Of a DNA stretch of 64,000 nucleotides, positions 9,200 to 30,761 are shown piece after piece (positions within the stretch are counted from its first letter, which is position 1; every line of letters starts with the position of its first letter). This DNA is from Acidobacteriota bacterium (GTDB lineage: Bacteria; Acidobacteriota; UBA6911): contig OY761556.1 of assembly GCA_963664705.1 (NCBI GenBank), positions 64,001-128,000 of the forward strand. The letters are read 5' to 3'. A program made the translations under genes and the position numbers. Below the pieces are notes generated by a model. It searched no databases, was not told the origin of the DNA, and saw nothing but the letters and a program-made list of their open reading frames with translations.

Positions 9200-9265
9200 A
9201 TGCCTGGTGTGTACGGAGTTTGCGCATCTTGGTGAAGGAAATTGCATAGTGAGGGTGGTGTGCTT

Positions 9266-9604
9266 ATGAAATTTGTCATTGCGATTATTCGTCCCCATCG
9301 TTTGCAGAATGTCAAGGAAGCTCTGTCGGATGCCGGTGTGGTGGGTCTGACGGTCACGGATGTTCGAGGCGCGGGGCGGCAGAAGGGTCAGATCGAGCGG
9401 TATCGGGGATCGGAATACAAAATTGATTTGATCTCCAAGTTGAAGCTGGAACTGGCAATCGAAGACGACCAGGTTGAGACGGTGGTTCAAGCCATCCGGG
9501 ACTCTGCCTACACGGGGGAAATCGGGGATGGAAAGATCTTCATCCTTCCTCTGGAAGATTCCATGCGGATCCGGACTGGGGATCGGGGAGAGAGTTCTTT
9601 ATAA
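9266..9604 (+). CDS. glnK: P-II nitrogen regulator
   Basis: AIIRP, G-x-G-x-QKG, T-loop YRGSEY, TGEIGDGKIF, RIRTG; directly upstream of amt. Confidence 0.95.
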   Translation: MKFVIAIIRPHRLQNVKEALSDAGVVGLTVTDVRGAGRQKGQIERYRGSEYKIDLISKLKLELAIEDDQVETVVQAIRDSAYTGEIGDGKIFILPLEDSMRIRTGDRGESSL

Positions 9605-9635
9605 GCAGGTGGTGTTTCATACTCGAGGATATGCC

Positions 9636-13468: not shown

Positions 13469-15277
13469 ATGACAGAGAAAATCCGGCCCACCACTGGAAT
13501 CGCTCAGGTCGATAAGGCAATCGGCGGCGTCATTGACGGCGATAACCTCGTCTGGGAAATCGACTCGGGGGTTGCCGGAGATCATTTCATCTCGCAGTTT
13601 GTCCGCGCCTGCGAACAAAGCGGCATTCCCATCGTGTATGTCAGTTTCAACCGTTCGCCTCAGACGATCGCGGCCAAATATGCCCGTCTCATGTCTCCCG
13701 GCCGTTTTTCGCTGATCGACTGCTTTTCATCGGGGAAGGGCAATTCCGACGAGATGTTCCTTAAGTTTTTCGATGATCCGGCGCGCAACTCTGTCCACGC
13801 CCCGGTGCACATCGCCGATCCCGCGGATCCCTCGCGACTCGAACAGGCACTCATTGAAGTGGGGACGCGAGGCGGCCGATCTGCGAATTATGTTTTCGAT
13901 TCCCTCACTGGAATGCTGGATTTGTGGGGGGACGAGAATCGTGTGGTGCGGTTGTTCGGCCATCTCTGTCCGCGCCTGTATGACCTTAATACCCTTGCCT
14001 ACTGGTTGATTGAAACGGAAGCGCATACGGAAGCCTTCCTGGCCAAAGTGCGGCATATCACCCAGGTGGTCATGGAGGTATCCCTCTCAAATGGTCAGAA
14101 ATCACTGACCGTCCACAAAGCATCCGGCCGAATTGCCGAAATCGGTGTGCCTCAACCTCTGGATCTCGGAGAGGGGATTGCCTTCCATGAGGGAGAACAG
14201 CGGCATTCGCCCGAAGTCGACCCGATGACCAAACGCGGCGAGGAATTGAGAAGAACCTATCGCGTTGACAGCATTGTCGGAGGCAGCGCCGCGATTCGCA
14301 GGCTCCTGGGTGTGGCCGCAACCGCTGCGCGGTCGCGCTCTTCCGTGCTTATCACGGGTGAGACCGGCACGGGGAAAGAACTCATCGCCAACGTTGTCCA
14401 CTACAACAGCGACCGGGCCTCGGGGCCGCTGGTCAAAGTCAATTGCGGCGCTCTTCCGGAAACACTCCTCGAGACGGAGCTGTTTGGCCATGTCAAAGGA
14501 GCTTTTACCGGCGCGGTTCGGGATTATGAAGGCCGATTCCAAGCGGCTGACGGCGGGACGCTTTTCCTGGATGAAGTCAGCGAAATGAGTCCGCGCCTTC
14601 AGGTGAAACTTCTGCGGGTCTTGCAGGAGCGGCAGTTTGAACCCGTTGGATCTACTCGAACCGTGACAGTGGATGTCCGAATCGTTGCCGCCACCGGCAG
14701 AGACCTCCGCGCGGAAATCCGCGCAGGCAGATTCAGACATGACCTCTTTTACCGGCTCAACGTGATCCCCGTTCATCTTCCTCCCCTGTCTGAACGGCGC
14801 GAAGACATCCCGCTCCTCGTGGATCACTTTCTCGAAAAGTACAATCGTGAGGCGGACCGCCAGGTTACGCGCGTCCCACGGGAAGTCCTCGACAAGTTCA
14901 TGGCCTATTCATGGCCTGGCAATATCCGTGAACTGGAGAATTGTATTGAACGCGCCGTCGTCATGAGTCCGGACAACGAGGTTTCACTCGACATACTCCC
15001 GGAGGAAATCCAGGAGTGCCGAACCGATCTCGCGGCCGCGCCCGAACCTGGGAAAGAACAAGACCCCAAAGATGAATTGCGCCAGTCGGTCATCCGGTTG
15101 CTGCTATCAAACGACGATCCTTCCGGCATGCGTACCCTTATCCTCGAGACCGTTGAGGAGACGCTTCTGCGCCAGTTGCTCGAGTCCGGCCGCTATAGCC
15201 AGCGAGAACTGGCAACCCTGCTATCGCTAAGCCGAGTCACGCTGCGGAAAAAGCTCGAACACTACAAAATATCCTGA
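13469..15277 (+). CDS. Sigma-54 enhancer-binding protein with N-terminal degenerate KaiC/RAD55-like domain and C-terminal HTH
   Basis: GETGTGKE, ELFGHVKGAFTGA, LFLDE, WPGNIREL, C-terminal HTH; N-terminus TGIAQVD..IGG, YVSF, YVFDSL. Confidence 0.9.
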   Translation: MTEKIRPTTGIAQVDKAIGGVIDGDNLVWEIDSGVAGDHFISQFVRACEQSGIPIVYVSFNRSPQTIAAKYARLMSPGRFSLIDCFSSGKGNSDEMFLKFFDDPARNSVHAPVHIADPADPSRLEQALIEVGTRGGRSANYVFDSLTGMLDLWGDENRVVRLFGHLCPRLYDLNTLAYWLIETEAHTEAFLAKVRHITQVVMEVSLSNGQKSLTVHKASGRIAEIGVPQPLDLGEGIAFHEGEQRHSPEVDPMTKRGEELRRTYRVDSIVGGSAAIRRLLGVAATAARSRSSVLITGETGTGKELIANVVHYNSDRASGPLVKVNCGALPETLLETELFGHVKGAFTGAVRDYEGRFQAADGGTLFLDEVSEMSPRLQVKLLRVLQERQFEPVGSTRTVTVDVRIVAATGRDLRAEIRAGRFRHDLFYRLNVIPVHLPPLSERREDIPLLVDHFLEKYNREADRQVTRVPREVLDKFMAYSWPGNIRELENCIERAVVMSPDNEVSLDILPEEIQECRTDLAAAPEPGKEQDPKDELRQSVIRLLLSNDDPSGMRTLILETVEETLLRQLLESGRYSQRELATLLSLSRVTLRKKLEHYKIS

Positions 15278-15531: not shown

Positions 15532-15547
15532 TGGCACGGGCATTGCT
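15532..15547 (+). promoter_or_regulatory. Sigma-54 (-24/-12) promoter of the glt-hdr-mvh-met operon
   Basis: TGGCAC-GGGCA-TTGCT, consensus match, 46 bp before ATG 15594. Confidence 0.9.
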
Positions 15548-15593
15548 AATAGAAACGCCGAACGGCAATAAAAGTTGGGAAAGGAAACGATCA

Positions 15594-15926
15594 ATGCCCA
15601 AGAACCCAAAATATTACGGTCTTTGTGAGACTTGCGAGCATGACGAAACCTGTACTTTAAGGCGCAGCTCGGTACTCAAGATCATTCAATGCGAGGAATT
15701 CTCGATTCAACCCACGGCTGCCGCGGAGCACTTTGTCAAGGACGAGGTTCTTCATGATGATTTGCAGGAACAGTCCCGCATGGGGTTGTGTGCGAACTGT
15801 CTGAATCTTCCAAGCTGTGGATTTCCAAATGCACGCCATGATGTCGTGCAGTGCGAAGAATACATCCTGGATGAAGCTGGAGTAATCCCGCCGATTCAAA
15901 AAGTACGGTCGGAATCCGCCGCATAA
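15594..15926 (+). CDS. Small tandem Cys4-repeat metal-binding protein
   Basis: Two copies of GLC-x2-C-x5-C-x11/12-CEE[FY]; RBS AAGGA before ATG 15594. Confidence 0.75.
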   Translation: MPKNPKYYGLCETCEHDETCTLRRSSVLKIIQCEEFSIQPTAAAEHFVKDEVLHDDLQEQSRMGLCANCLNLPSCGFPNARHDVVQCEEYILDEAGVIPPIQKVRSESAA

Positions 15927-15948
15927 ATAGATTTAGGAAAGAGACAGA

Positions 15949-16479
15949 ATGGATACCCTCCCCGAGCAAGCTGCCATCACAGTTTTTTTGTGCGCCAATT
16001 GTGCCCGTCCCGGCCAGGTGCCGACATCTTCCGGGCGGACACGGCCTGTTGTCCCGAATTTCGAATGGACTTGTCCCGTCGAGCAGATAGTTGTTCCCTG
16101 TGCTGGACGTCTTCAGCCGGAGAATGTGCTGAAAGCCTTTGAGAAGGGTTCCAGTGTTGTATCCGTAATTGCGTGCCAGGAAGACAACTGCCATTACATT
16201 GAAGGCAGCCGTCGATGCACGCTTCGCGTGGATTATCTTCGCTCGCTTCTTGACGAAATCGGGCTTGGCGGAGATCGCCTGTTATCGTTCTCCCTGCCGG
16301 GCTCCGCATCCCAGGACTTGGCTTTGACTTCGGGTTTGCCCGCAATAAAGACAGCCCAGGATTCGCTCGCGACTCAAATCATTCTTATTCGCGATCAGGT
16401 TATGGCGACGCTCCAGTCGTGCCCGCCCAATCCGATGGCACAAATGCCGGCGGAAGCTTCCGTGGGAGGGGTGGAATAA
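15949..16479 (+). CDS. mvhD: MvhD/FlpD-like 2Fe-2S subunit (divergent)
   Basis: FLCANC...PCAGR...ACQEDNCHY.EG...LLDEIGLGGDRL. Confidence 0.8.
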   Translation: MDTLPEQAAITVFLCANCARPGQVPTSSGRTRPVVPNFEWTCPVEQIVVPCAGRLQPENVLKAFEKGSSVVSVIACQEDNCHYIEGSRRCTLRVDYLRSLLDEIGLGGDRLLSFSLPGSASQDLALTSGLPAIKTAQDSLATQIILIRDQVMATLQSCPPNPMAQMPAEASVGGVE

Positions 16480-17369
16480 TGAACCGGTTTGCCAGTGCAT
16501 TGATGTCCCGCCAGTTGATTGTTTCGGCGGAGTGCCTGCCGCCCCGGGGTTCGGACCCGGAGGCGATCAAGGCTTTTTCCGCATCTCTTCCGGAACGGGT
16601 GAATGCCGTTGTTGTTGCGGATAACCCTGATGTAATCCGCGGATCCGCTCTTTCGACGGCTCGGCTTTTGTCGTGGGAAGGCAAGAAGAGCATTGTCCTT
16701 TCGATGGCTACACGTGATCGCAACCGGTTGGCTCTCCTGAGCGATGCTTTGGGCGCGGCGGCCCTGGATGTGGATGCAGTGCTTTGCATGAGCGGCAATC
16801 ACCAGTCCATCGGCGTGTGTCCCCAGGCTGCGGCCGCAAACGATTTTGACTCCATCCAGTTTACCCAGGCGCTGAAGAAACTGGTTCTTCATGGTGTGGG
16901 GCCCAATGGAAACGGCCTTGAACCCCGGCTCGAATTGCAGATTGGTGCGACAGCGCATCCCTACCTGCGTCCGTTGGACCTGAGTCTCTTCCGCCTCAGG
17001 AAGAAGATTCTTGCGGGAGCCGATTTTCTCTTCACGCAGGCGATCTTTGATCTTGGCGGGTTTTTTGAATGGATAAAGGGTGTGCAGGCTGCCGGGTTTG
17101 ACAAGAGGACGGCCATCATTGCCAGCGTTCTGCCGCTTGCAAGCGTCGACAAAGCGAGGGAATTGCAGAAGGCGCATACCTATGGGCCGGTTCCGGACAG
17201 CGTTGTGGAACGCATCAGCGGAGCTGCTCAGCCTGCTCGCGAAGGCGTGGCGATCGCAGCGGAGATAGCAAAGCAGTTGAAAAGTGTTCCGGAAATCCGT
17301 GGCATTCACATTCTCAACGGCGGTGATGATTCCCTGATCGCCGATGTCATAAAGCAGGCCGGAGTTTAG
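16479..17369 (+). CDS. metF: Methylenetetrahydrofolate reductase-like flavoprotein (MetF)
   Basis: SAECLPP, DNP, RDRNRLAL.SD..GA, KKI.AGADF.FTQ, GIHI; TAATG overlap with mvhD stop. Confidence 0.8.
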   Translation: MNRFASALMSRQLIVSAECLPPRGSDPEAIKAFSASLPERVNAVVVADNPDVIRGSALSTARLLSWEGKKSIVLSMATRDRNRLALLSDALGAAALDVDAVLCMSGNHQSIGVCPQAAAANDFDSIQFTQALKKLVLHGVGPNGNGLEPRLELQIGATAHPYLRPLDLSLFRLRKKILAGADFLFTQAIFDLGGFFEWIKGVQAAGFDKRTAIIASVLPLASVDKARELQKAHTYGPVPDSVVERISGAAQPAREGVAIAAEIAKQLKSVPEIRGIHILNGGDDSLIADVIKQAGV

Positions 17370-17449
17370 TTCTGAATTTTCGGGCGTGAAGCGGAAGTCG
17401 CGGAATTCCCGTTCGTTATTTTTTGGCAATTTTTTCTGTAGAGACACAT

Positions 17450-18871
17450 ATGCCTGATCGTTACCACATTCATACGGTGCCCACGCCGGGGCGCTTCTAC
17501 CGGGTCGGAAAGTTCGGCGGTGTTGACTGGCGCGAGGACTGCTCCCGTTGTTCCAATTGCGTAAAGCGGCGCTGCTGCTATGACGTGTATGACCACGAGT
17601 CGGACCATAATCGGGATCCGTTCAGCTCCAGTCAGACGTTGAATGAATGCAAGGCCTGTTTCTCCTGTGTTCAGGGCTGCACGAAAGGCCTGCTAAGCCT
17701 TTCCGTCAATCCTGAATTCCTCGAAATGGGAGATGATTTCTGGAAGCCCGACGTAATCATGACCACATGGAATCAGGCCGAGACCGGCAAAATTCCTGTG
17801 TCCGGCGCCGGATATCGCGGCCGCTTTCATGGCCCTGGATTCGATTCCATCTGGACGGATATGTCTGAGATTGTTCGCCCCACGCGGGATGGAATTCATG
17901 GACGCGAATACATCTCTACCTCCGTGGATATCGGTCCCAAGCCGATGCGCCTGAGTTTTGCACCGGACGGGACTATGCTCTCGGCTCCTGCGAAACTCCT
18001 GGAATTGCAGATGCCCGCGGTTCTGGACATCCCGGCCTGGCCGGTGCAGCAACCGGCTCTTGCCCAAGCGCGCGCCGTGGCGGCCGAAGAACTGAAAACC
18101 GTGGCTGTGATGTATGCAAAGGATGCCGTGCTCCTGTCAATGGAATTGCGGCCTTTTGTTGCACCCATCATTGATGCGGAAGTGCCGGCGGGGATTCTCG
18201 ACGGGCGCTGGGCAATGATGCAACTGATTGATCGGGCGGACATTCTGAAGAATGCCGAGGCAATTCGGGCGACAAATCCCGAGATGATTCTATCTGTCCG
18301 GTTGCCGCTTGGCCCGGATACCACCGAGCGCCTCCTCGACCTTTTCCGCCGCGGGTTTAGAGTTTTTCATCTGTGCGCGGATTTGCACGGAAAGGAACTG
18401 ACGGAGGATTCCGTGTCCGCGCGTCATATCAAGGATGTTCTTCGGGAACTTCATTCCCGCCTTGTCAAAGAGGGGATCCGGGATGAAGCAACCCTGATCG
18501 TTGCCGGCGGAATCGCGCTGGCGGAGCATATGGCCAAATCCATTATTTGCGGCGCGGATCTCGTGGCTGCCGACACGGCTTTGATGGTGGCTCTTGGCTG
18601 TCGCGTGTGCCGTGACGCTCATGTGCCGGGACAGAAGAGCTGTGCCTGCCCGGCCGAACTGGACTCTGTAGACATCAATTATGCGGCCCAGCGCATCGTC
18701 AATCTGATGGGGGCATGGCACAGTCAGCTGATTGAAGTCCTCGGCGCGATGGGCATCCGCGAAGCGCGACGGTTGCGCGGCGAAATGGGCCGGGCCATTT
18801 TCATGGAAGAGATTGAAAAAGAAGCTTTTGGAGACCTTTACCGGGTCCGTCAGGAGCAGGTGAGTGCATAA
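17450..18871 (+). CDS. Glutamate-synthase-related FMN-barrel/ferredoxin protein, degenerate paralog
   Basis: N-terminal CxxCxxC...C and CxxCxxC...C; GAGY.G...GPGFDS.WTDMSEIVRPTRDGIHGRE; LIVAGGI...AK....GAD; lacks QGAKPG. Confidence 0.8.
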   Translation: MPDRYHIHTVPTPGRFYRVGKFGGVDWREDCSRCSNCVKRRCCYDVYDHESDHNRDPFSSSQTLNECKACFSCVQGCTKGLLSLSVNPEFLEMGDDFWKPDVIMTTWNQAETGKIPVSGAGYRGRFHGPGFDSIWTDMSEIVRPTRDGIHGREYISTSVDIGPKPMRLSFAPDGTMLSAPAKLLELQMPAVLDIPAWPVQQPALAQARAVAAEELKTVAVMYAKDAVLLSMELRPFVAPIIDAEVPAGILDGRWAMMQLIDRADILKNAEAIRATNPEMILSVRLPLGPDTTERLLDLFRRGFRVFHLCADLHGKELTEDSVSARHIKDVLRELHSRLVKEGIRDEATLIVAGGIALAEHMAKSIICGADLVAADTALMVALGCRVCRDAHVPGQKSCACPAELDSVDINYAAQRIVNLMGAWHSQLIEVLGAMGIREARRLRGEMGRAIFMEEIEKEAFGDLYRVRQEQVSA

Positions 18872-18915
18872 CAGCGGAGCGCGGAATCAGAAAACCGCAG
18901 ATCAGAATAAGACCT

Positions 18916-19087
18916 GTGCCTTTACAGGGCTTTCGGGGTTGTGTTCAGGCTCGGAGACATGTGCAGGCTCAACGCTATTTTCCCGCCACATCAGGGTCGC
19001 TCCTTCCGATATGGCAGTGACAAATAGCAGGGCGAGGGCCTGCAATTATGTTTCCCGAGCTGAAAGCCCGAGGCCCTGCAAGGGCAC
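18916..19087. repeat. ~172-bp imperfect fold-back (REP/MITE-like) element inside the operon
   Basis: Termini GTGCCTTTACAGGGC / GCCCTGCAAGGGCAC (13/15 complementary) with nested complementary blocks. Confidence 0.7.
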
Positions 19088-19122
19088 CAGGTTTACTGCT
19101 CCTTTTTAGCACAGGTGGGTGC

Positions 19123-20700
19123 ATGACGACAACTATTGCAAAAATCCAAATCCAAGATGATATCCAGCCTGAGACGGGTCATAGCGATTGGCCGCAGGAA
19201 TCGGTCCCTCGCGAGGTACGTCCGGTTCCCGACCGCTATCGCAATCCGATCGGCAAATACAAGGTGGATCGGCTTGCATCCTGCATATCCTGCGGGCGTT
19301 GCGCCGAGGTTTGCCAATACGGTGTGCACGTAAAACCGGAAGGCTACAAATACATGCTTCGGCCGCTGGATTACCGATGCGTGGGCCCGGCTTGCTCGGA
19401 ACGCGGCGGGGAATGCATCCATGAATGCCCCAAGAAGGCCCTGGTGTTGAGACTGAATCCGAACGTCGACTGCATGGGCGACCCGCGCTGGTCCAGTGAT
19501 CTGATTCTGTCAACGTGGTATCAGTCGGAAACAGGGCAAACACCACCGGCTCACCTGGAATACCGGCACGGAGACTCCGGCGGGGGTTTCGACCGGATGC
19601 GTTTCAAGTTTGAAATTCCGGGTCTTGAAACCCCGAAACCCGGCACCGTCTTCGACGCCAAAAAGGAAAATCCTGCGGATGTCGATACGGGTCTGGATCT
19701 GAATCGCCGGGACGATGGACGTCCTCAGGTCCACATTGATATCCCTATCTATGGCGGTGGAATGAGTTTCGGGTCCGTCAGCATTTACACGATTCTGGCA
19801 AAGGCCCGCTCTGCGGCTGCCTGGAATACATTCAGTTGTACCGGAGAAGGCGGCTATCCCGATCGCCTCAAACCATATGATGACCATATGATTACCCAGG
19901 TGGCTACCGGTCTCTTCGGAGTTCGGGAAGAGACAATTCAGCGGGTACGCATTGTCGAATTCAAGTATGCGCAGGGCGCTAAGCCCGGATTGGGTGGACA
20001 TCTCCTGGGGGACAAAAACACTCCGGCCGTGGCTCGTATGCGAGGCGCCGTCCCCGGGAACGCGCTGTTCAGCCCATTCCCGTTTCATAGCGTTTATAGC
20101 GTCGAAGACCACAAAAAGCACCTGGACTGGATAAAGGAAGTCAACCCGGACTGCCTTGTCAGTGTAAAGGTTTCGACTCCGACGGATGTAGACATGGTTG
20201 CGGTCGGAAGCTATTACGCGGGTGCGCACATCATTCACCTCGATGGAAGCTACGGCGGGACGGGTGCGGCTCCCGACATTGCAAAAAAGAACATTGCGAT
20301 GCCGATCGAGTATGGGATCCCCAAGGTTCACAAATTTCTCACCGCCGAGGGCATTCGTGAAAAGGTCACCCTGATTGCCTCCGGTGGTTGTCGTACTGCT
20401 TACGACGTGCTGAAAGCGATTGCGCTGGGTGCTGACGGGGTGGTGATCGGGACGGCCGAAATGGTTGCTCTTGGCTGCGTGCGGTGTGCCTGCTGTGAAA
20501 GCGGCCGCGGGTGCCCCAGGGGCATTGCGTCCACCGATACAGAACTGATCGAGCTGATGGATTTGGAATGGGCGACACAGAGACTGATCAACCTCCAGAA
20601 CGCCTGGCACGAACAGATGATTTCCGTCCTGAGGCAGCTTGGAATGGCTTCCATCCGGGAGTTGCGCGGTCGCAGTGATGTGCTTTGCTACTTGGATTAG
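19123..20700 (+). CDS. Glutamate synthase FMN-binding subunit (split GltB, synthase domain) with N-terminal ferredoxin
   Basis: GGMSFGS, TGEGG, QVATGLFGV, EFKYAQGAKPGLGGHL, DG..GGTGAAP, ASGG.RT..D..KAIALGAD, GCVRCACCESGRGCP. Confidence 0.92.
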   Translation: MTTTIAKIQIQDDIQPETGHSDWPQESVPREVRPVPDRYRNPIGKYKVDRLASCISCGRCAEVCQYGVHVKPEGYKYMLRPLDYRCVGPACSERGGECIHECPKKALVLRLNPNVDCMGDPRWSSDLILSTWYQSETGQTPPAHLEYRHGDSGGGFDRMRFKFEIPGLETPKPGTVFDAKKENPADVDTGLDLNRRDDGRPQVHIDIPIYGGGMSFGSVSIYTILAKARSAAAWNTFSCTGEGGYPDRLKPYDDHMITQVATGLFGVREETIQRVRIVEFKYAQGAKPGLGGHLLGDKNTPAVARMRGAVPGNALFSPFPFHSVYSVEDHKKHLDWIKEVNPDCLVSVKVSTPTDVDMVAVGSYYAGAHIIHLDGSYGGTGAAPDIAKKNIAMPIEYGIPKVHKFLTAEGIREKVTLIASGGCRTAYDVLKAIALGADGVVIGTAEMVALGCVRCACCESGRGCPRGIASTDTELIELMDLEWATQRLINLQNAWHEQMISVLRQLGMASIRELRGRSDVLCYLD

Positions 20701-20784
20701 TTTCAAATTCAGGGGTTTGCACCGCCGGTTTCTGAGCGGCAAACCGAGATTTGAAATGTGACATCTGGAATTTAGGGGAATTAC

Positions 20785-23385
20785 GTGAACGACATAGCAG
20801 AACGACTGTTGGCAACCCGCTCGCATGTATATCGCGGGCCTCAGATGCCCTTGATCAAATCAGCCGAAGAAGGGGGATGCGGTGTTACGGGGTTTGCCTG
20901 CACAATCCCATTGGCCGGCAGGTACATTTACGAACCTTCCATTCAGATGCAGAACCGAGGGAATGGAAAAGGCGGCGGCATTGCTGCCGTCGGTCTCGTG
21001 CCGGAGCAAATGGGGGTATCTCGCGATGTGCTGGACAGCCATTACCTGTTGCAGATTGCGCTGCTCGATCCCACCTGCCATGCGGATCTCGAACGACGGT
21101 ATGTCCTGCCGAATTTCGATGTGGCTCTTTCCTCAAGACAGCCGCACATCGACGATTACCGGGACATTCCCGGGCTGGACGTCCGGCCCCCGGATGTGCA
21201 CCGGTATGTCGTTCGCCCCAAGCCAGCGATACTGAAATCCTTTGCCGCGGAAAACGGACTCGAAAGTCTGCCGGCCCGAGATATTGAAGACGAATTCGTC
21301 TGGCGGAATTCCTATCGGCTCAATGATGAATACTACGCCTCTCTTGGAGAAAAACGGGCGTTTGTCCTCTCCCATAGCCGGGATCTTCTTGTTTTCAAGC
21401 TGGTGGGCTACGCCGAACAGAATGTCGAATACTATCAGTTGCAGGATTTCAAGGCACATGCATGGATCGCGCACCAGCGCTATCCAACCAAGGGCCGTGT
21501 CTGGCATCCCGGCGGGGCTCACCCGTTTGTCGGCCTGAACGAAGCCCTGGTGCATAACGGTGATTTTGCCAATTACTATTCCGTATGCGAATATCTCCGG
21601 CAAAGGAATATCCGCCAGCAGTTTTTGACGGACACGGAAGTGTCGGCGCAGCTCTTTGATCTTTGGGATCGCGTATACAAATATCCGCTTGAATACATCA
21701 TTGAAGCGCTCGCTCCGACAACGGAACTCGATTTTGATCAGCTCCCGCCGGAGAAGCAGGCTATCTATCGACAGATCCAGGCCACGCACATTCACGCTTC
21801 CCCGGACGGCCCGTGGTTTTTCATCATTGCCCGAAGCCAGCCCGACCAGAGACGAGTTCAACTGTTGGGCATCACCGATACCGCTATGCTGCGGCCCCAG
21901 GTTTTTGCCTTGTCCAATAATGACGATATTCAAATCGGTCTGATCTGTTCCGAGAAGCAGGCGATCGATGCAACGCTGCGCAGCCTGGCAAAGGAAGATA
22001 TGCGGTTCTGCCCGGTTGCCGACAAATACTGGAATGCCCGTGGCGGGTCCAGCACGGATGGTGGTGCCTTTATTTTCAGCGTCGATTCCGATCAGGAAGG
22101 ACGGAAGACGCTTGCGTGCACGGACAAGTTCGGACGGCCCGTCGTGATTAACTCCGGCTCCGTCCGTTGCGATCTGCCTTCGACCAACACGATAGAGAAA
22201 GAAGCGCCCGATGCATTGCGCGAACTGGTCAACCAGTGGCTGCAAAAAGGGAAGGTTGAGGATCTTTTCACATATGCCCTCGATCTTCCATCCTGGTCGT
22301 CCGGCGATCTGCAGCGTTTCTGCAAACTCGTCGTCGATGGGGCCGATAACGCCACATCGCGAAAAACGGCGATTGAACTGCTGACGATGCTTCGGGACCG
22401 GCGTTTTTATACCGGTGACAAGCGAAGAGCCACGGTGATTTGGGTTGTAGACAAGATGATAGAGGCTCTGTTTGACAGTGCGCCGCTGTTTGGCGAGCCG
22501 GTCAGCCGTTTCTGGCGCCGGGTCAACTGGAATACGCGGGATCAGGTAGTTGCGCCGCGTGCCGGAGAAGAATTGCTCCTGATTGATGCCCAGGAGTTTC
22601 CGCCGGAAGGCGACTATTGCGATGCTGTTCTTCTGAGACAGGCCTATCGGCTGGGTTGGAAGCAATTCATCGTATACCGGTTGCGTGGTCAGCGCTTTCA
22701 CGGGGCAGGTCTGGGCCCGGAAACCGGTTCGGTGCGCATCGATCTGTATGGATCCAACGGAGACTATACGGCGAGCGGCATGGATGGCCTGCAGTTGTAT
22801 ATTCACGGTAATGCACAAGATCAGGTTGCTCAGATTGCCAAGAGCGGAAAACTTGTCATTTACGGAGATGTTGGCCAGACCTTCATGTATGGAGCAAAAG
22901 GAGGCGAGGTTTACGTCCTGGGAAACGCTGCAGGCAGGCCGCTGATCAATGCGGTTGGACGTCCGCGCGTAGTCATCAATGGAACATGCCTGGATTTCCT
23001 GGCGGAATCTTTCATGGCCGGGGATCCGCTGCTCGGCGGGGGCTTCGTAATCGTGAATGGAATTGAGTTTGACGGCCGCGGCAATATCGTGCCTCAACCG
23101 GCTCCCTATCCCGGCAGCAACCTCTTTTCTCTTGCCAGCGGGGGTGCCATCTATATTCGAGATCCTCATCAGCAGGTAGTCGAACGGCAGCTGAATGGCG
23201 GCGTTTTCTCCTCTTTGACCGACAAAGACTGGAGGCTCATCCGCCCCTATCTCGTAGAAAACGAGAGCCTGTTTGGAGTCCGGATCCAAGACCTCCTGAC
23301 CGTTGATGGCGTTGTAAAACCGCCACACGAAGTCTATCGAAAGGTAAGTGCAGTGAAACTTGCCGTGCTTGCCAAGTCGAAGTAG
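20785..23385 (+). CDS. Glutamate synthase amidotransferase (Ntn GATase-2) + GXGXG beta-helix subunit
   Basis: Propeptide then CGV, RG.G.GGG, AHQRYPT, AHPF, HNGD..NY, TDTE; C-terminal GSNGDY/GNAQD/GDVGQ/GNAAGR repeats. Confidence 0.92.
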   Translation: MNDIAERLLATRSHVYRGPQMPLIKSAEEGGCGVTGFACTIPLAGRYIYEPSIQMQNRGNGKGGGIAAVGLVPEQMGVSRDVLDSHYLLQIALLDPTCHADLERRYVLPNFDVALSSRQPHIDDYRDIPGLDVRPPDVHRYVVRPKPAILKSFAAENGLESLPARDIEDEFVWRNSYRLNDEYYASLGEKRAFVLSHSRDLLVFKLVGYAEQNVEYYQLQDFKAHAWIAHQRYPTKGRVWHPGGAHPFVGLNEALVHNGDFANYYSVCEYLRQRNIRQQFLTDTEVSAQLFDLWDRVYKYPLEYIIEALAPTTELDFDQLPPEKQAIYRQIQATHIHASPDGPWFFIIARSQPDQRRVQLLGITDTAMLRPQVFALSNNDDIQIGLICSEKQAIDATLRSLAKEDMRFCPVADKYWNARGGSSTDGGAFIFSVDSDQEGRKTLACTDKFGRPVVINSGSVRCDLPSTNTIEKEAPDALRELVNQWLQKGKVEDLFTYALDLPSWSSGDLQRFCKLVVDGADNATSRKTAIELLTMLRDRRFYTGDKRRATVIWVVDKMIEALFDSAPLFGEPVSRFWRRVNWNTRDQVVAPRAGEELLLIDAQEFPPEGDYCDAVLLRQAYRLGWKQFIVYRLRGQRFHGAGLGPETGSVRIDLYGSNGDYTASGMDGLQLYIHGNAQDQVAQIAKSGKLVIYGDVGQTFMYGAKGGEVYVLGNAAGRPLINAVGRPRVVINGTCLDFLAESFMAGDPLLGGGFVIVNGIEFDGRGNIVPQPAPYPGSNLFSLASGGAIYIRDPHQQVVERQLNGGVFSSLTDKDWRLIRPYLVENESLFGVRIQDLLTVDGVVKPPHEVYRKVSAVKLAVLAKSK

Positions 23386-23406
23386 CGCGGATTTTTGGAC
23401 CTGAAC

Positions 23407-26400
23407 ATGGAACAGCAAATGGACATTGAGAAGGTCGGGGCGGTGCTGGTGTGCGGCGCAGGGATTGCGGGCATCCAGGCATCGCTGGATCTGGCGGACA
23501 GCGGATTCAAAGTATATCTGCTGGAGCATACCGCCGCCATTGGCGGCCGCATGGCTCAACTGGACAAAGCCTATCCAACAGGCGACTGTTCGATGTGCAT
23601 TCTTTCGCCACGCCTGGTGGAATGTGCCAGAAACAGGAATATCGAAATCATCACCCTCGCCGATCTGGAAAGTGTTTCCGGAGAGCCCGGCAACTTCAAA
23701 GTCAAGATACGGCAGAATCCCCGTTACATTGATGCAAGGAAGTGTGATGCCTGCGGCGATTGCTCGGCGGTTTGCCCGGTCAGTCTTTCGAGCGAATTCG
23801 ATTGCGGCATGGGCGAAAAAAAGGCGGTTTCGCTGCCCTATCCCCAGGCAATTCCCGGTATCTTCAGTATTTCGAAAGCCCAGGGGCAGGTGCCTTGCAG
23901 ATCTCTTTGCCCGGCCGGAGTTAATGTCCCAGGCTTTGTCGCGCTGGTTGCCGCCGGCAAATTCAAAGAAGCTTTCGAGCTTATCCGTTTGCGTTGTTCG
24001 CTCCCCGCTGTCTCCGGGCGTATATGCCGTCATTCCTGCCAGGATAAATGCAATCGGGGTGAAGTAGATGAATCCGTCTCCATTCGCCACCTGGAAAGAT
24101 ATGTAGCCGACTACGTGCAACAGAACCCGGATCAATACCCGGAGCGCTCCGGATCCGTGATTGCATCGGGCAAAAGGGTTGCCATTATCGGATCAGGGCC
24201 TGCCGGATTGACGGCTGCTTCGGATCTGTCTCTGATGGGGTATGGCGTTACCTTGTTTGAGGCCAAACCGCAGCTTGGCGGTATGTTGCGATACGGGATC
24301 CCTGAATACCGGCTACCCAAGGAAATTCTCGATAGGGATGTTCGGCATATCCTGGAGTTGGGAGTAGAGGTCAGAACCAATACTCCGATTGAAAAACCGG
24401 GTGATCTTCTCAAATCCCGGCAAGCTGACGGTGCTTCAGCCAATGCCGCTGACTTTGACGCGGTGTTTGTATCGACCGGGGCCTGGCAAAGCCTCAAACC
24501 GGGTATTCCCGGGGAGGATGCCGGCGGAGTCTGGGAGGGATTGAAATTCCTTTACGCGGTAAATTCCGGTAGCAGTTTCGAGATCGGACCCGAAGTGCTG
24601 GTCATCGGGGGGTCCGCTTTAGCCATCGATACGGCCCGATGCGCGCTGAGAGTGCCCGGAGTGAAATCGGTGCAGCTAGCCTGCCTCGAAAATGCGGGCG
24701 AATTACGCGCGGGTACGGACCATGTCGCGGAAGCGATTGCCGAGGGCATTGAGATTCACTATAGCCTTGGGCCAACCACTGTCAATGCAAAGGACAGCCG
24801 GGTCTCCTCGGTAAGATTTCGCGCCTGCACCAGCCTGTATGACGAATATAAGAGATTTGATCCGCTGTTTGACGATTCATCCATCCGAACTATTTCCGCC
24901 GACACTGTCATTATCGCAAGTGGCCGGGCAGTCGATGCAAAGGGCTTTGGGCTCGAAATGCGGCCCGGCGGGCGCATCCTAGCCGATAAAGATACGCTGG
25001 CAACCGGTGTCCGGGGAGTGTTTGCGGGAGGGGACGCCGTTCTGGGCCCGGCATCGATGGTGGATGCAATGGCTCACGGGCATAAGGCGGCTGCATCCAT
25101 TGATGCCTTCATTCGAGGCAGCGCATCCATTCGCAGTATGTCAAAAGCATCTGCCGGGGATACTGCGAGTACCGCTTCCGTGCACTTTGCCCATAACCCG
25201 AAGCCATGGGTATCCAAGCAGTCTCACAGCCCTATCGCGCGCGCAAAAGAATCTTCCAGACCGCAGGATCATTCGGAAATATTTCTTGGCTATTCGCATG
25301 ATGCCGCCATTGCCGAGGCAAAACTGTGCCTGGCCTGTGGCTTATGCAGTGAATGCCTGTTGTGTGTGAAGGCGTGCTCGGCCGATGCCCTGGTTCATGA
25401 TCAGCAGGCGACATCCCTTGAGGTCGAGGTCGGGAGCATCATCCTCGCGCCGGGCGTCGAAGAACTCGAGTCTGCCGCAGCCCGAAAATTCGGGCTGGGT
25501 AAATATGCGAATGTTGTCTCCGGTCTGCAGTTTGAACGGATGCTTGCGGCGGCCGGGCCGTCCGGACGCCTTCATCGTCATTCGGATGCCGGCGAAGTCA
25601 GAAGCATTGCCTTTATTCAATGTGTCGGCGGTCGTGAAGGGGATGCGGACTATTGCTCTTCGATTTGCTGTATGAATACGGCAAAGGCGGCTTTGGGTGC
25701 GTTGGAGCGATCGGCTGCGGGAGCTATGGAAGTTACGATATTCTGCCGCGAAGTCCGTTCCTTTGGGAAAGAATCGGACGCCTATATTCGCAGGGCAAAG
25801 CAGGAAAATGGCTTGCATTACCTGCGGGCTGTTCCATCCAATCTTTGGGAGACGGGTGAGACCGGCAGGCTGAAGATTGCCTGGCCGGGAAAGGATGGCG
25901 TATCCGAGCAGGAGTTCGACCTGGTTGTTCTCAGTACCGGGGCACAGGTATCCGCCGGCGCCAGGGATATGGCCTCCCGGATTGGTTTGCAGCTGAATAG
26001 CTTTGGTTTTGTCCAGACGGACAGGATGTCTCCATTTGCGACATCCCGACCAGGGATTTTCGTCGCCGGCTCCTTTCAGGAACCCAAGGACATATCCGAA
26101 TCGGTCGCGCAGGCTTCCGGCGCAGCCGCCTGCTCCATGAGCCTGTTGACGGCTGTCCGGGGCACAATGACTCGGCGCCATGAGTATCCCTGGGAAAGAG
26201 ATGTTGCCGATGAGTCGCCCCGGATTGGCGTTTTTGTCTGCCGTTGCGGACACAACATTGCGGATGTTGTGGACGTTGAACTGGTTGCCAGCAAAGCGGC
26301 GAAGATGCCCGGCGTGTGCCATGCAGAGGTGAGCACCTATACATGCTCGGATACCAATCAGCAGCATATCCGCTCCCTCATTCGTAAACACCGTCTCAAC

Positions 26401-27906
26401 CGTCTGGTGGTTGCATCCTGTTCATCGCGAACCCATGAAATGCTATTCCGGGAGACCCTGCGTGAGAGCGGGCTGAACCAGTACCTGTTTGCTATGACGA
26501 ACATTCGAGACCAATGCTCCTGGGTTCATAAGGACAACCCGTTGGAGGCCACCGCCAAGGCCGTGGATCTTGTCTCCATGGCCATTGCCCGAGCCCGTTT
26601 GCTGCGGGCATTTCCCCTCCATGAGCTCGAGGTCACAGCCTCCGCTCTGATTATCGGGGGCGGGCTTGCGGGGATGACCTCGGCACTGAATCTGGCCGAC
26701 CAGGGGTTCAAGGTGCACCTGGTGGAGAGGGAACCTGCGCTGGGAGGACAACTCCGAAACCTGCAGTCCGATCTGGAGCGGGATAATATCCAGGATGAAT
26801 TGAAAGTCCTGGTGTCGCGGGTTTCGTATCATCCCAACGTGACCGTTCACAGGAACTCGATTCTTGTGCGAACCTCCGGTCAGGTAGGAAATTTCGTCAG
26901 CGTTCTGTCTGCTGCAGGCAAGGAACAAACGGTCAAGCATGGTGTTGTGATTGTTGCCACCGGTGGTCGCGAACGTTCCACGACTCGATTCCTATGCGGG
27001 GATGACTCGCGCGTGGTCACTCAGAGGGCGCTTGAATCGGCATTGTCAGGAGGGAATCTCCCATCAGAGCTGACCGGTAAAAAGGCTCCTTCCGTTGTGA
27101 TGATTCAATGCGTCGACAGCCGGAATGCGGATAATCCTTACTGCAGCCGGGTCTGTTGTTCGGAAGCGATCAAAAATGCTCTTGAACTCAAGCGCCGCAG
27201 ACCGGATGCAGATATTGCCATCCTCAACCGGGATATCCATACATACGGTTCCAGAGACGATTACTTCAGGCAGGCGCGCAACAAAGGGATCCAGTTCGTC
27301 CGGTACTCGGAGAGCCGGGAGCCCCTGGTTGCAAACGAGAGTGGAGTGCTTCAGGTGAGAGTAACGGAAAATGACACCGGGCGCGAACTGGCTTATCACC
27401 CGGATCTGCTGGTCCTGTCGACCGGCATTGCCCCGGATGCCGGGAATGCTGATATCGCCGGGATCCTCCGTTGTGCGCTAACGGCGGAAGGATTCTTCCT
27501 CGAAGCCCACCCGAAACTCAGGCCTGTGGATCTTGCCAATGAAGGGGAGTTTGTCTGTGGCCTGGCGCATTCGCCCCGCTTCATGGACGAAACAATTGCG
27601 CAAGCCCATGCCGTCGCCGGACGCGCAGCAAGGATCCTGTCGAAGACTCAGATGGAGATTGTCGGACAGGTTTCCTATGTCGAGCCGGCCAACTGTGTCG
27701 CATGCGCGACCTGCGTAAAGATCTGTCCCTATGGCGCACCCATGATCAATGCCTTGGGGAAGTCGGAGATCCAGGCGGCAAAATGCATGGGGTGCGGCAG
27801 TTGTGTTGCAGCATGTCCTGCAAGGGCGATGGCACTCCAGCATCAGGAAGGCAGCACTATGATCGCCATGCTCGATGAAATGCGGGCAAGCGGAGGATTG
27901 GAATGA
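23407..27906 (+). CDS. hdrA: HdrA-like multi-domain flavoprotein (HdrL type: HdrA, inserted GltD-like oxidoreductase, second HdrA)
   Basis: VLVCGAGIAG...DKAYPTGDC; ferredoxin motifs; GltD-like CR..CP.G...GRIC...C...C.R and GSGPAG; two QCV...YCS..CC motifs; VVASCS, NIRDQCSWVH, LEAHPKLRP. Start uncertain (23395/23407/23419). Confidence 0.92.
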   Translation: MEQQMDIEKVGAVLVCGAGIAGIQASLDLADSGFKVYLLEHTAAIGGRMAQLDKAYPTGDCSMCILSPRLVECARNRNIEIITLADLESVSGEPGNFKVKIRQNPRYIDARKCDACGDCSAVCPVSLSSEFDCGMGEKKAVSLPYPQAIPGIFSISKAQGQVPCRSLCPAGVNVPGFVALVAAGKFKEAFELIRLRCSLPAVSGRICRHSCQDKCNRGEVDESVSIRHLERYVADYVQQNPDQYPERSGSVIASGKRVAIIGSGPAGLTAASDLSLMGYGVTLFEAKPQLGGMLRYGIPEYRLPKEILDRDVRHILELGVEVRTNTPIEKPGDLLKSRQADGASANAADFDAVFVSTGAWQSLKPGIPGEDAGGVWEGLKFLYAVNSGSSFEIGPEVLVIGGSALAIDTARCALRVPGVKSVQLACLENAGELRAGTDHVAEAIAEGIEIHYSLGPTTVNAKDSRVSSVRFRACTSLYDEYKRFDPLFDDSSIRTISADTVIIASGRAVDAKGFGLEMRPGGRILADKDTLATGVRGVFAGGDAVLGPASMVDAMAHGHKAAASIDAFIRGSASIRSMSKASAGDTASTASVHFAHNPKPWVSKQSHSPIARAKESSRPQDHSEIFLGYSHDAAIAEAKLCLACGLCSECLLCVKACSADALVHDQQATSLEVEVGSIILAPGVEELESAAARKFGLGKYANVVSGLQFERMLAAAGPSGRLHRHSDAGEVRSIAFIQCVGGREGDADYCSSICCMNTAKAALGALERSAAGAMEVTIFCREVRSFGKESDAYIRRAKQENGLHYLRAVPSNLWETGETGRLKIAWPGKDGVSEQEFDLVVLSTGAQVSAGARDMASRIGLQLNSFGFVQTDRMSPFATSRPGIFVAGSFQEPKDISESVAQASGAAACSMSLLTAVRGTMTRRHEYPWERDVADESPRIGVFVCRCGHNIADVVDVELVASKAAKMPGVCHAEVSTYTCSDTNQQHIRSLIRKHRLNRLVVASCSSRTHEMLFRETLRESGLNQYLFAMTNIRDQCSWVHKDNPLEATAKAVDLVSMAIARARLLRAFPLHELEVTASALIIGGGLAGMTSALNLADQGFKVHLVEREPALGGQLRNLQSDLERDNIQDELKVLVSRVSYHPNVTVHRNSILVRTSGQVGNFVSVLSAAGKEQTVKHGVVIVATGGRERSTTRFLCGDDSRVVTQRALESALSGGNLPSELTGKKAPSVVMIQCVDSRNADNPYCSRVCCSEAIKNALELKRRRPDADIAILNRDIHTYGSRDDYFRQARNKGIQFVRYSESREPLVANESGVLQVRVTENDTGRELAYHPDLLVLSTGIAPDAGNADIAGILRCALTAEGFFLEAHPKLRPVDLANEGEFVCGLAHSPRFMDETIAQAHAVAGRAARILSKTQMEIVGQVSYVEPANCVACATCVKICPYGAPMINALGKSEIQAAKCMGCGSCVAACPARAMALQHQEGSTMIAMLDEMRASGGLE

Positions 27907-28400
27907 AGGAGCTGAACCGGGATGTGAAAAGCGGCAGCGTTTCGGTCTCCGATACCTGTGCCAATACTCAGTGGGCACCGGAGATTCTGGCATTCTGCTG
28001 CGAATATTGCGCCCATTCGGCTGCAGCTTTAGCCGGATCCAAGCGGATCCAATACCCCACCGGTGTGCGGATTATTCCCGCACCATGTACCGGAAAAATC
28101 GAAATGGAGCATATTCTCGAAGCCTTCGAGAAGGGAGTGGATGGAATCCTTGTTGTTGGCTGTCTCGAAGGTGGCTGCCATTTCCTGGAAGGTAACCTGC
28201 GGGCGCGCAAGCGCACCGAGCGCGTCTGCGAGATACTTGATGAAATCGGTCTTGGAGGGGGGCGCCTCAAGATGGTGAACCTCTCTGATTCCATGGCTTC
28301 GGAATTTGTGCAGGAAATGCACGAGATGCTGAAAACTGCCAGAGCCCTGGGCCCGAATCCGCTGAAATCAAAACATAATGAAAGTGCAGGGGATCTATGA
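27903..28400 (+). CDS. mvhD: MvhD/FlpD 2Fe-2S subunit
   Basis: AFCCEYCA, PCTGK, GCLEGGCHF.EGN; ATGA overlap with hdrA. Confidence 0.93.
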   Translation: MKELNRDVKSGSVSVSDTCANTQWAPEILAFCCEYCAHSAAALAGSKRIQYPTGVRIIPAPCTGKIEMEHILEAFEKGVDGILVVGCLEGGCHFLEGNLRARKRTERVCEILDEIGLGGGRLKMVNLSDSMASEFVQEMHEMLKTARALGPNPLKSKHNESAGDL

Positions 28401-29065
28401 TCGTTGCTTCACCAAAGTCAATTACTGAACTCAAAAGCATCATTTCCGGACACAAAAAGGTCCTGTTTGCAGGATGCGGGACTTGTGTCACCGTCTGCCT
28501 GGCTGGTGGTGAACGAGAGGTCAGCATAGCCGCCTATTCCGTTCGAATGGCTCGCAAACTCGAGCGAAATCCGGTGGAAATTTCTCAGATCACCATTGAA
28601 CGCCAATGCGAAAATGAATTCATCAAAGAGCTGGCGGAACCTGCAAGCAAGGTTGAAGCGATTGTCTCATTTGGCTGCGGTGCCGGCGTACAGGCAATTG
28701 CGGAACGATTTCCTGATAAACCGGTCTATGCCGGACTCAATACTCAGTTTCTGGGTGTACTTGAGGAACAGGCTATCTGGACCGAAAAATGCATGGGGTG
28801 CGGTGATTGTATGCTGGCGCACTTCGGAGGTATCTGCCCGGTAACCCGATGCGCCAAACGTCTGTTGAACGGTCCCTGCGGAGGTTCCCTGGAGGAACGC
28901 TGTGAAATCGATCCGGACCGGCCGTGCGCATGGCAGCTTATCTATACCCGTCTCAAAAATATCGGTCAGCTTGAAAAACTGGAAGATATCGTGCCGCCCA
29001 AAGACTGGAGCACGGCATGGTACAACGGCGCGCGGAAAGTAATTCGCAAGGAACACAAAGTCTAG
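28397..29065 (+). CDS. metV: MetV (MTHFR small Cys-rich Fe-S/Zn subunit)
   Basis: GCGTCVTVC, ERQC, CGAGVQ, C..CGDC...GGICPVTRCAK.LLNGPCGG...CE....CAW. Confidence 0.92.
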   Translation: MIVASPKSITELKSIISGHKKVLFAGCGTCVTVCLAGGEREVSIAAYSVRMARKLERNPVEISQITIERQCENEFIKELAEPASKVEAIVSFGCGAGVQAIAERFPDKPVYAGLNTQFLGVLEEQAIWTEKCMGCGDCMLAHFGGICPVTRCAKRLLNGPCGGSLEERCEIDPDRPCAWQLIYTRLKNIGQLEKLEDIVPPKDWSTAWYNGARKVIRKEHKV

Positions 29066-29076
29066 TCATATCCCGC

Positions 29077-29132
29077 AATTTGTAGAATCCGTGGCAAAAG
29101 AGGATCCTAACCTGCCGCGGATTCTACAAATT
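29077..29132. terminator. 20-bp inverted repeat ending the operon (between convergent genes)
   Basis: AATTTGTAGAATCCGTGGCA...TGCCGCGGATTCTACAAATT. Confidence 0.7.
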
Positions 29133-29158
29133 CAGAATACATCGACACTCATCCTTTA

Positions 29159-29704: not shown

Positions 29705-29842
29705 TCTTTCTCCTTATTGAGATTTATGCACCCTACTGACCGGCGGCCAATCCGGGCGCGGTTGCGTGATAAAGTCGGAAAGACCCAGCGAGCCATCGGA
29801 ACTCGTGGTTGTGCCAATGTCCAATGGCTCGCAAAAAGGTTT

Positions 29843-30478: not shown

Positions 30479-30761
30479 TGAATTCTCCTTTTCTCGAGGA
30501 TAGTTAAATAACTCCAAAGGATAAAGTTTCCGTCGGAGTGCGCCAAAACTCAAGGAAAAAGGTCCGAAGCAATTTCGAAGTCGGATGTCGGCGCCAAATG
30601 CGCTGACCGGGCTTTTCCCCGGCCCAGTTTCCTCGTTTTCTTCTTGCCGGGCAGCGCCTTCCAACGCCCGTTTTAAGGGAATCGGCAGAGCAGACCTTGA
30701 CAATGGTCCCTGAATGTGGAGAATGCAGACTCAATTCAGATAGAGCGGTGCTGGAGGCGAG

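Follow-up and report, generated by a model that had tools for sequence, protein, structure and literature searches.

A sigma-54-linked gene cluster of an Acidobacteriota bacterium encoding a likely three-chain glutamate synthase with MvhD and MetV adaptors

Background

Glutamate synthases of the GltB/GltS type (PDB 1ea0, 2vdc, 6s6s, 1ofd, 7mfm) combine an amidotransferase, a synthase barrel with all key residues and a GXGXG helix, and the locus described here is alike in all three, as well as in a predicted two-barrel arrangement overlaying their central and FMN domains. The central domain of GltB has been described as a decayed duplicate (PMC5011417). In contrast to these enzymes, our cluster has three chains, an amidotransferase fused directly to GXGXG, no separate GltD and, at the predicted place of the central domain, a complete paralog that bears Fe-S and a ferredoxin domain of its own. 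The archaeal-type split synthase, of which one example was compared (Monoglobus locus L048), resembles it in the split genes, the ferredoxin domain of the FMN subunit and a cluster motif of the CxxCxxC type, but has a separate GXGXG gene and a single barrel gene followed by an FAD oxidoreductase with an Fe-S protein, whereas the cluster has two barrel genes, a fused GXGXG and MvhD/MetV. N-methylglutamate synthase MgsABC (GlxBCD; locus L047) likewise consists of three homologous GltB-derived pieces; unlike the cluster, it has no second barrel, and its MgsC is devoid of K931, E978 and the ferredoxin domain.

The remaining genes recall the HdrCBA-MvhD-MetVF complex of the Moorella/Sporomusa type, with which the cluster shares MvhD, MetV and MetF, its relatives possessing hdrC and hdrB as well. 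The HdrL of the cluster is built like the M. thermoacetica HdrA of 1487 aa, GltD insert included (PMC9430772), and has the same domain build and MvhD pairing as type III HdrA, for which the available portions of PMC2702500 and PMC12054007 give no link to a glutamate synthase core. The differences from the Moorella/Sporomusa complex are the interleaved glutamate synthase genes, a second, divergent MvhD and the lost folate anchor of MetF, together with the loss of hdrBC and the changed NAD(P)H motif in the genus. The original prediction knew of no biochemical description of such a complex, and our search of main texts likewise found no description of such a cluster, gene tables in supplements being a place where one could be mentioned.

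In this work, we are presenting an analysis of the cluster within its window, i.e. the whole stretch of 64,000 nucleotides. Our main reading, with a probability of about 0.45, is that a three-chain synthase makes glutamate under sigma-54 control, with MetV and the synthase's own MvhD, and not an eroding HdrL, as the entry point for electrons.

Results and discussion

Organisation and nitrogen context

All nine genes of the cluster are present in the window with intact open reading frames on the + strand. The predicted layout of one sigma-54 promoter, nine co-oriented genes, overlapping junctions and a terminal hairpin was confirmed. The sigma-54 -24/-12 site (TGGCAC-N5-TTGCT, 15532..15547, + strand) is the sole strict one of the window, with a chance expectation of about 0.0003 in the 316-nt gap, and it is conserved 58-65 nt 5' of the first gene in 13/13 scanned loci having the gene of the 110-aa Cys protein. 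Reading frames overlap by 1 nt at mvhD1/metF and by 4 nt at both hdrL/mvhD2 and mvhD2/metV, while the other intergenic gaps measure 21-251 nt. The long hairpin (29077..29136, no strand assigned) is flanked by convergent genes, has no U-tract, folds with -31.9 kcal/mol and occurs once in the source genome; it was not among the calls of the terminator scan, and the sigma-70 and terminator scans gave counts not above those in shuffled sequence.

Upstream, a sigma-54 enhancer-binding protein whose N-terminal domain has no annotation (13469..15277, + strand; 78-91% identity among genus loci) is the likely activator of the operon. Outside the operon lie also amtB and a gene at 9242-9604 which we take to be a glnK-like PII gene (together 9242..11045, + strand). 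The original prediction read a nitrogen role from this pair; a nitrogen neighbourhood was upheld, the neighbours of the core loci including glnA, amtB, purF and carAB. The first gene of the operon (15594..15926) is Cys-rich as proposed, with two tandem four-cysteine units instead of the single one expected; no family was assigned to its 110-aa product, which among mapped loci is found only in those of the source genus and matched only unnamed clusters in the Atlas search.

Glutamate synthase core

Judging by conserved motifs, the constant core of the family has three members, namely an amidotransferase, an FMN subunit whose catalytic residues are intact, and a paralog with Fe-S but no FMN. Two FMN/Fe-S GltB-like genes had been proposed; both are GltB-like, and FMN and 2-oxoglutarate motifs are present in one only. 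This one, fmnB (19123..20700, alternative start 19048), encodes a ferredoxin domain and an intact FMN/2-oxoglutarate synthase barrel, including the coupling residue E978: K931, K937, E978, Q909 and T1030 (A. brasilense numbering) are kept in 131/131 sequences, and simple-pattern counts gave E886 in 128, R957 in 124 and K999 in 111 of the 131. The amidotransferase gene (20785..23385) fuses an Ntn glutamine amidotransferase, with its catalytic Cys32 within EEGGCG after a propeptide, to a GXGXG beta-helix scoring over the Pfam cut-off; the HNG and TDxE motifs are kept in 106/106. The third chain, fmnA (17450..18871), has a ferredoxin domain, an FMN-less synthase-barrel paralog and a C-terminal Cys cluster; QGAKPG, GEGG and GGTG are missing in 89/89 sequences, with 11 invariant Cys retained. 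On its own, fmnA matches the FMN domain of GltB and not the central domain. Only the model of a relative's natural fmnA-fmnB fusion (L199, pTM 0.89), overlaying GltB residues 448-1182 (622 residues, rmsd 3.9, Z 34.7), predicts fmnA to sit in the central-domain position. With its catalytic motifs intact, the cluster is likely a three-chain synthase making glutamate under sigma-54 control.

Split architecture adjoining MetF/MetV might also suggest an MgsABC-like N-methylglutamate synthase passing C1 units to folate. We rejected this alternative as barely credible because the FMN subunit retains GltB residues missing from the MgsC reference: the one MgsC sequence compared (L047, identified by its glnT-glxC context) has EVV and PDDL at K931 and E978, both of which fmnB keeps in 131/131, and the MgsC-type context was met in none of the mapped loci.

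The three-gene core was found in 74/251 sampled Desulfobacterota genomes, 70 of which have no canonical GltB; canonical GltB occurs in 49/251, and both types in 4 versus 14.4 expected, in genomes that are not independent owing to kinship. Besides the cluster, the source genome has canonical GltBD as well as two genes of the glutamate dehydrogenase family, which counts against our main reading. As canonical GltBD already covers synthesis there and in 20/30 genus genomes, the cluster might instead run toward glutamate oxidation with electrons passing into Hdr. This is very improbable in view of the intact glutaminase motifs, the neighbouring glnK-amtB and glnA, the near-exclusion with canonical GltB and a forward reaction that is strongly exergonic with assumed potentials.

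Interchangeable putative electron inlets

The two MvhD proteins differ in kind. MvhD1 (15949..16479), a synthase-linked [2Fe-2S] adaptor with four invariant Cys, is without the motif of HdrA-partner MvhDs, while MvhD2 (27903..28400) is of the HdrA type; the motif is missing in 126/127 synthase-side MvhDs and present in 13/13 hdrL-side ones, and mvhD2 is lost in every case of hdrL loss. In the upstream block, 36/40 Desulfobacterota loci carry MvhD and the remaining 4 an LctD-like flavoprotein, which also occurs fused to fmnA. The electron inlet is interchangeable: some loci have a dedicated MvhD, which MetV, MetF or Hdr may accompany, and others an LctD-like flavoprotein. That the latter works as a lactate or 2-hydroxyglutarate dehydrogenase was an idea dropped because the metal ligands GH...H/EHG are found in 0/14 site-spanning sequences; they are present in the genome's own GlcD-like control. 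The expected co-conservation of glutamate synthase with MvhD, MetV/MetF and often Hdr holds across several phyla.

MvhD is the sole inlet gene in 9/40 loci, and loci L146 and L153-L155 have no recognisable inlet. Such loci, together with the ferredoxin domains on both fmnA and fmnB, would suit a ferredoxin-dependent synthase in which MetV or these domains take electrons directly, HdrL and MetF being vestigial. In vitro, the donor of C. ljungdahlii MetVF is reduced ferredoxin and not NAD(P)H, but the same source argues that ferredoxin is not its in vivo donor (PMC8760232). We consider this explanation unlikely, since it leaves unexplained both the dedicated flavoprotein inlets, kept even as fusions to fmnA, and the purifying selection on HdrL and MetF.

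Apparent erosion of HdrL in the genus

HdrL (23407..27906) consists of two HdrA modules and a GltD/Nfn-like insert at about residues 160-570. Absence of gltD, hdrB and hdrC had been claimed; none is a gene of the cluster, but a GltD/Nfn-like domain is hidden within HdrL, and the genome has canonical gltB-gltD and two sets of hdrBC at other places. In the window's copy Ser403 replaces a glycine of the NAD(P)H motif, a kind of change that impairs binding. This glycine is altered in 13/14 readable hdrBC-less genus copies, the window's included; the motif is intact in the hdrBC-less G597, which speaks against our main reading, and in 21/21 relatives whose operons contain both hdrB and hdrC. Among 21 complete genus loci, hdrL is absent in 6, has internally deleted HdrA cores in 5 and is full-length in 10. 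In this lineage the large flavoprotein appears to be decaying. G595, G579 and G573, which have no operon hdrL, carry shorter HdrA types or fragments and no full-length GltD-containing HdrL elsewhere, an observation that also counts against our main reading.

The proposal that HdrL is the defining replacement of GltD found no support, because Hdr genes occur in few loci (7/40 in Desulfobacterota) and hdrL is often lost or deleted in the genus (11/21). A narrower version has the HdrL-MvhD2 pair of the operon itself oxidise NAD(P)H and supply the synthase via MetV, possibly by bifurcation. The window's HdrL is indeed full-length and keeps E710/K760 and E1210/K1256, the E356/K409 bifurcation signature of HdrA (PMC9430772). 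Its gene is translationally coupled to mvhD2 and metV, and comparison with L004 (dN 0.24, dS 2.26) points to continuing purifying selection; these features stand against our main reading, and the intact motif of the 21 relatives agrees with the narrower version too. On the other side are the altered glycine, the absent or deleted copies in loci where metV is retained, and the GltD insert, predicted to block the ferredoxin site of HdrA (PMC12054007). We regard feeding by the operon's own HdrL as doubtful. Bifurcation is plausible for the complete hdrBC-containing relatives and doubtful for the window's HdrL.

MetF, MetV and the proposed electron route

The MetF-like protein (16479..17369) keeps the Glu28 and Gln183 equivalents, and has Asn107 at the position of the folate-anchoring Asp120, which is described as invariant and catalytically essential (PMC9900621). 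The suggested methyl/methylene-THF coupling is unsupported in the source genome because MetF lacks this Asp, and the protein is likely no longer a folate reductase, as far as its residues tell. The Asp is kept in 20/20 Hdr-less type I loci versus 16/66 of type II. Type II MetF forms one clade and so does the hdrBC-less type, so loss of Asp120 and loss of hdrBC each count as a single event and not as repeated evidence. The genus carries a trimmed copy, with hdrBC and the MetF Asp lost and the HdrL glycine mostly changed.

That MetF oxidises methyl-THF and passes electrons via MetV and MvhD to the synthase is therefore quite improbable in the source genome, in which, moreover, a search for acetyl-CoA synthase found none. 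The same route is likelier, and a possibility worth entertaining, for the Hdr-less type I relatives (16/40 Desulfobacterota loci): their MetF is canonical and, in 5/5 genomes checked, additional to other paralogs, the matches to the MTHFR family numbering 3-7, and the reaction would yield about -26 kJ/mol with assumed standard potentials. Acetyl-CoA synthase, present in 14/16 type I genomes, 164/251 overall and 7/9 MvhD-only ones, does not discriminate.

MetV (28397..29065) is the most conserved cluster gene within the genus, kept in 21/21 loci with a mean identity of 84% versus 58% for hdrL. Full-length copies of a canonical MetF, with 83% or more identity to the paralog linked to Hdr in the source genome, occur in 24/30 genus genomes, including all six missing the operon hdrL. 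In the genus, electrons likely enter via MetV, their most plausible source being the intact paralogous Hdr-MvhD-MetVF complex.

According to our main reading, the amidotransferase would free ammonia from glutamine and fmnB, as its motifs suggest, would reduce 2-iminoglutarate. Packed centrally against fmnB, fmnA would serve as an Fe-S wire, a role predicted from the model and the natural fusions, and MvhD1 would plug the inlet onto fmnA, as gene order and the alternative inlet fused to fmnA suggest. MetF without its folate anchor may act as scaffold or flavin relay, so that electrons normally reducing methylene-THF would be diverted to the synthase. The weakest step is the source, presumably the separately encoded, well-conserved HdrCB-HdrL-MvhD-MetVF complex of the genome, to which the operon MetV would attach where MetVF normally sits. 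Against this, shared docking is not evident because the MetVs of the operon and of the paralogous complex are only 48% identical.

Conclusions

Widespread in anaerobic bacteria, the three-chain type seems to serve roughly three in ten of the sampled Desulfobacterota, as well as many uncultured anaerobes, as their principal glutamate synthase, and its iron-sulfur inlet adaptors are likely borrowed from the folate-reducing complex. The window holds a trimmed version, the hdrBC-containing and MvhD-MetVF relatives being more suitable for biochemical study. The cluster is also relevant to the question of a second partner for MetVF complexes of the Hdr type, and its two-barrel arrangement, still intact, provides an intermediate for how the GltB central domain arose. 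About 49 kJ/mol is released by the canonical NADPH-dependent reaction (computed with assumed values). With an inlet built from parts of bifurcating complexes, cells short of energy could regain this energy or draw on weaker donors. Tentatively, and on balance somewhat unlikely, the whole family may be an electron-bifurcating glutamate synthase, in which glutamate synthesis is the high-potential sink and drives NAD(P)H-dependent reduction of ferredoxin (about -24 kJ/mol for the coupled reaction, computed with assumed potentials). In two known bifurcating machines the high-potential arm is MetVF (Hdr complex) or the LctD-like subunit (lactate dehydrogenase-ETF); both arms would here be plugs whose substrate site is lost. 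If true, nitrogen assimilation would conserve energy in these organisms, and in the fmnA chain the ancestor of the GltB central domain would survive in living form.

Results

Architecture and probable regulation of the operon

In the window the nine genes of the original prediction were found in the proposed order and with three overlaps, and the expected sigma-54 promoter, at 15532, is the sole strict match within the window; in all 13 scanned loci carrying the first gene, such a site lies 58-65 nt 5' of it. The closing hairpin is real, but it has no U-tract. The reported absence of gltD holds for separate genes, while HdrL contains a GltD/Nfn-like insert. A gene for an enhancer-binding protein is located immediately 5' of the operon, with glnK-amtB another 4 kb upstream, and we infer that the operon is under nitrogen regulation. 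The N-terminal domain of this activator (13469-14260), in appearance presumably KaiC/RecA-like, gave no match in Pfam and may represent an undescribed nitrogen sensor. In Desulfobacterota it is found again next to the synthase genes, there as part of proteins with other fused domains (L190:12293-13600; L224:5318-7900).

The Cys-rich leader protein (15594-15926) carries a four-Cys unit once or twice, depending on the genome, and its look-alikes in the Atlas belong to unnamed clusters of Acidobacteriota and Planctomycetota. A DUF5916/CBM9 protein (11083-13302, minus strand) separates amtB from the activator, while in several relatives amtB directly precedes it. Two similar tandem genes (29159-30703, minus strand), which we take to encode cyclophilin-type isomerase-like proteins, converge on the hairpin.

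Three-gene synthase core

For comparison we used 40 genome loci, the best 80 of at least 571 metagenome loci (close relatives over-represented), 13 Acidobacteriota regions and 40 of 74 Desulfobacterota matches, the last picked by score and by length of the contig. On every contig of sufficient length, fmnA, fmnB and the amidotransferase gene follow one another in this order, except in locus L200, where the amidotransferase was not found within 2 kb 3' of fmnB. The fmnA-fmnB gap measures 251 nt in the window (18872-19122); in relatives the two genes may be fused, touch each other or lie up to about 330 nt apart.

All 131 fmnB sequences carry the synthase residues K931, K937, Q909, E978 and T1030 (as numbered in A. 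brasilense GltB), and motif comparison showed retention of the amidotransferase catalytic motifs. The single MgsC reference lacks K931 and E978, and the suggested MgsABC-like enzyme was not borne out by this comparison (n=1). By its motifs and predicted fold the cluster would work like GltB; it falls outside GltBD, MgsABC and the intact Hdr-type MTHFR.

The fmnA product is a paralog of fmnB (26% identical) which lacks all FMN and substrate loops in 89/89 sequences and has 11 invariant cysteines. Alone it overlays the GltB FMN domain (Z 25.2, rmsd 3.8, 323 residues). A natural fmnA-fmnB fusion of a relative gave a rigid predicted fold (pTM 0.89), overlaying both the central and the FMN domain of GltB at once (Z 34.7, rmsd 3.9, 622 residues); the two-barrel packing is likewise a prediction. 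Since the GltB central domain arose by duplication of the FMN domain followed by decay, according to PMC5011417, fmnA is predicted to be its undecayed, Fe-S-bearing counterpart, as modelled on the relative's protein and transferred to the window by homology.

Interchangeable electron inlets

The inlet of the synthase is modular. Among 40 Desulfobacterota loci, 16 carry mvhD-metV-metF without Hdr (type I), nine mvhD only, four mvhD-metV, seven Hdr genes, and four an LctD-like FAD/Fe-S protein instead. The latter is fused to fmnA in proteins P0024 and P0027, and in the giant single chains P0139 (3016 aa) and P0146 (2508 aa) it is joined to the two barrels and the amidotransferase. In a quick tree built from 74 amidotransferases, with sequences containing X, of unclear architecture or above 86% similarity left out, the eight architecture labels required 15 changes, where 7 is the minimum. 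The HdrA-type motif is absent from the synthase-side MvhD in 126/127 cases and present in the hdrL-side MvhD in 13/13; by these motifs MvhD1 is probably a dedicated plug onto fmnA.

MetF Asp120, invariant and essential for catalysis according to PMC9900621, is kept in 20/20 type I against 16/66 type II sequences, type II having mvhD before metF and Hdr downstream (sequences deduplicated at 90%). Type II MetF has eleven other residues at this position, and several copies are shortened; as it forms one clade in a quick tree, the loss counts as one event. In the LctD-like inlet, the metal-binding His/Glu motifs are missing in 14/14 sequences long enough to cover them. Judged from sequence, the MetVF-type (type II) and LctD-like inlets thus both appear to have lost their textbook substrate sites. 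MetVF and LctD belong to known or proposed bifurcating complexes (PMC6085437), of which we regard them as the high-potential 'arms'; parallel site loss in two such arms is the basis of a more speculative reading, of low probability, in which the family is an electron-bifurcating glutamate synthase.

Trimmed copy in the genus of the window

The lineage of the window has a trimmed copy of the cluster. Operons of the hdrBC-less type group as a single clade nested within those that contain hdrBC (99% local support). All 21 hdrBC-containing operons preserve the NAD(P)H motif of the GltD insert, GGG[D/N]xAxD. In the genus, the third glycine of this motif is altered in 13 of the 14 HdrL copies that could be read (Ser403 in the window), genome G597 being the exception and G591 unreadable. 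The locus extends as far as metV in 21 genus genomes; loci L250, L251 and L253, which are cut off too soon, were excluded. Of these 21, 10 have full-length hdrL, two of them with frameshifts that are possibly assembly errors, five an internally deleted gene and six none. The mvhD2 gene was lost together with hdrL, metV never. Mean identity in the genus is 84% for MetV (highest in the cluster), 61% for MetF and 58% for HdrL.

Against trimming, HdrL of the window retains both bifurcation signatures and the dN of its gene is far below dS; the operon's own HdrL as electron source, as originally proposed, is a close rival. Most genus genomes retain a separate Hdr-MvhD-MetVF system (HdrL identity 74-88%); the decay of the operon's own Hdr parts, with MetV spared, is best accounted for by redundancy with this system. 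In the window's genome (G000) this paralogous operon, hdrC-hdrB-hdrL-mvhD-metV-metF, is complete and lies about 30 kb upstream (L041:8917-17178; contig C1, about 43-51 kb); its MetF is canonical, and it is conserved across the genus. A third metV-metF pair (L043:4440-11668) follows genes for a CoA transferase, a GlcD-like FAD protein, an Fe-S/MvhD fusion and a LarA-family protein.

Electrons from a putative donor would pass from MetV through MvhD1 and fmnA to the FMN of fmnB. With standard potentials, the reaction yields -49 kJ/mol with NAD(P)H, -26 with methyl-THF and -24 when bifurcated to ferredoxin, so thermodynamics excludes none of these routes, and direct use of ferredoxin by the synthase is also a close rival.

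Distribution and nitrogen context

The fmnA profile matched 74/251 sampled Desulfobacterota genomes, 15/301 Acidobacteriota genomes and 24/29 other genomes of the window's genus, while Actinomycetota and Dehalococcoidia are also represented among named records. Canonical GltB accompanies the split type in only 4/74 Desulfobacterota genomes against 14.4 expected, a test inflated by kinship and leaving archaeal-type synthases uncounted. This near-exclusion, together with the frequent neighbours glnA, amtB, purF and carAB, speaks for a functional enzyme of nitrogen assimilation. The cluster occurs without a canonical GltB match in five genus genomes of 93% completeness or more (G577, G220, G595, G596, G579); hdrL is deleted or missing in four of them.

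The genome of the window (98% complete) also has canonical gltB-gltD outside the cluster. Fhs was found there and acetyl-CoA synthase gave no match, this being the sole genus genome tested. Its single glutamine synthetase match (G000:C1:4302849-4303322) lies within a 729-aa frame, by size presumably type III-like, and no type I GlnA was found in this genome. A further 550-aa protein near glnA (L036:2122-3771) matches Glu_synthase weakly, and there are similar weak matches in genomes G301 and G304.

Conclusions

We found no published description of the cluster in the literature outside subscription journals and supplements. It is a real, widespread and apparently undescribed variant of glutamate synthase, and most of its potential interest sits with the complete relatives.
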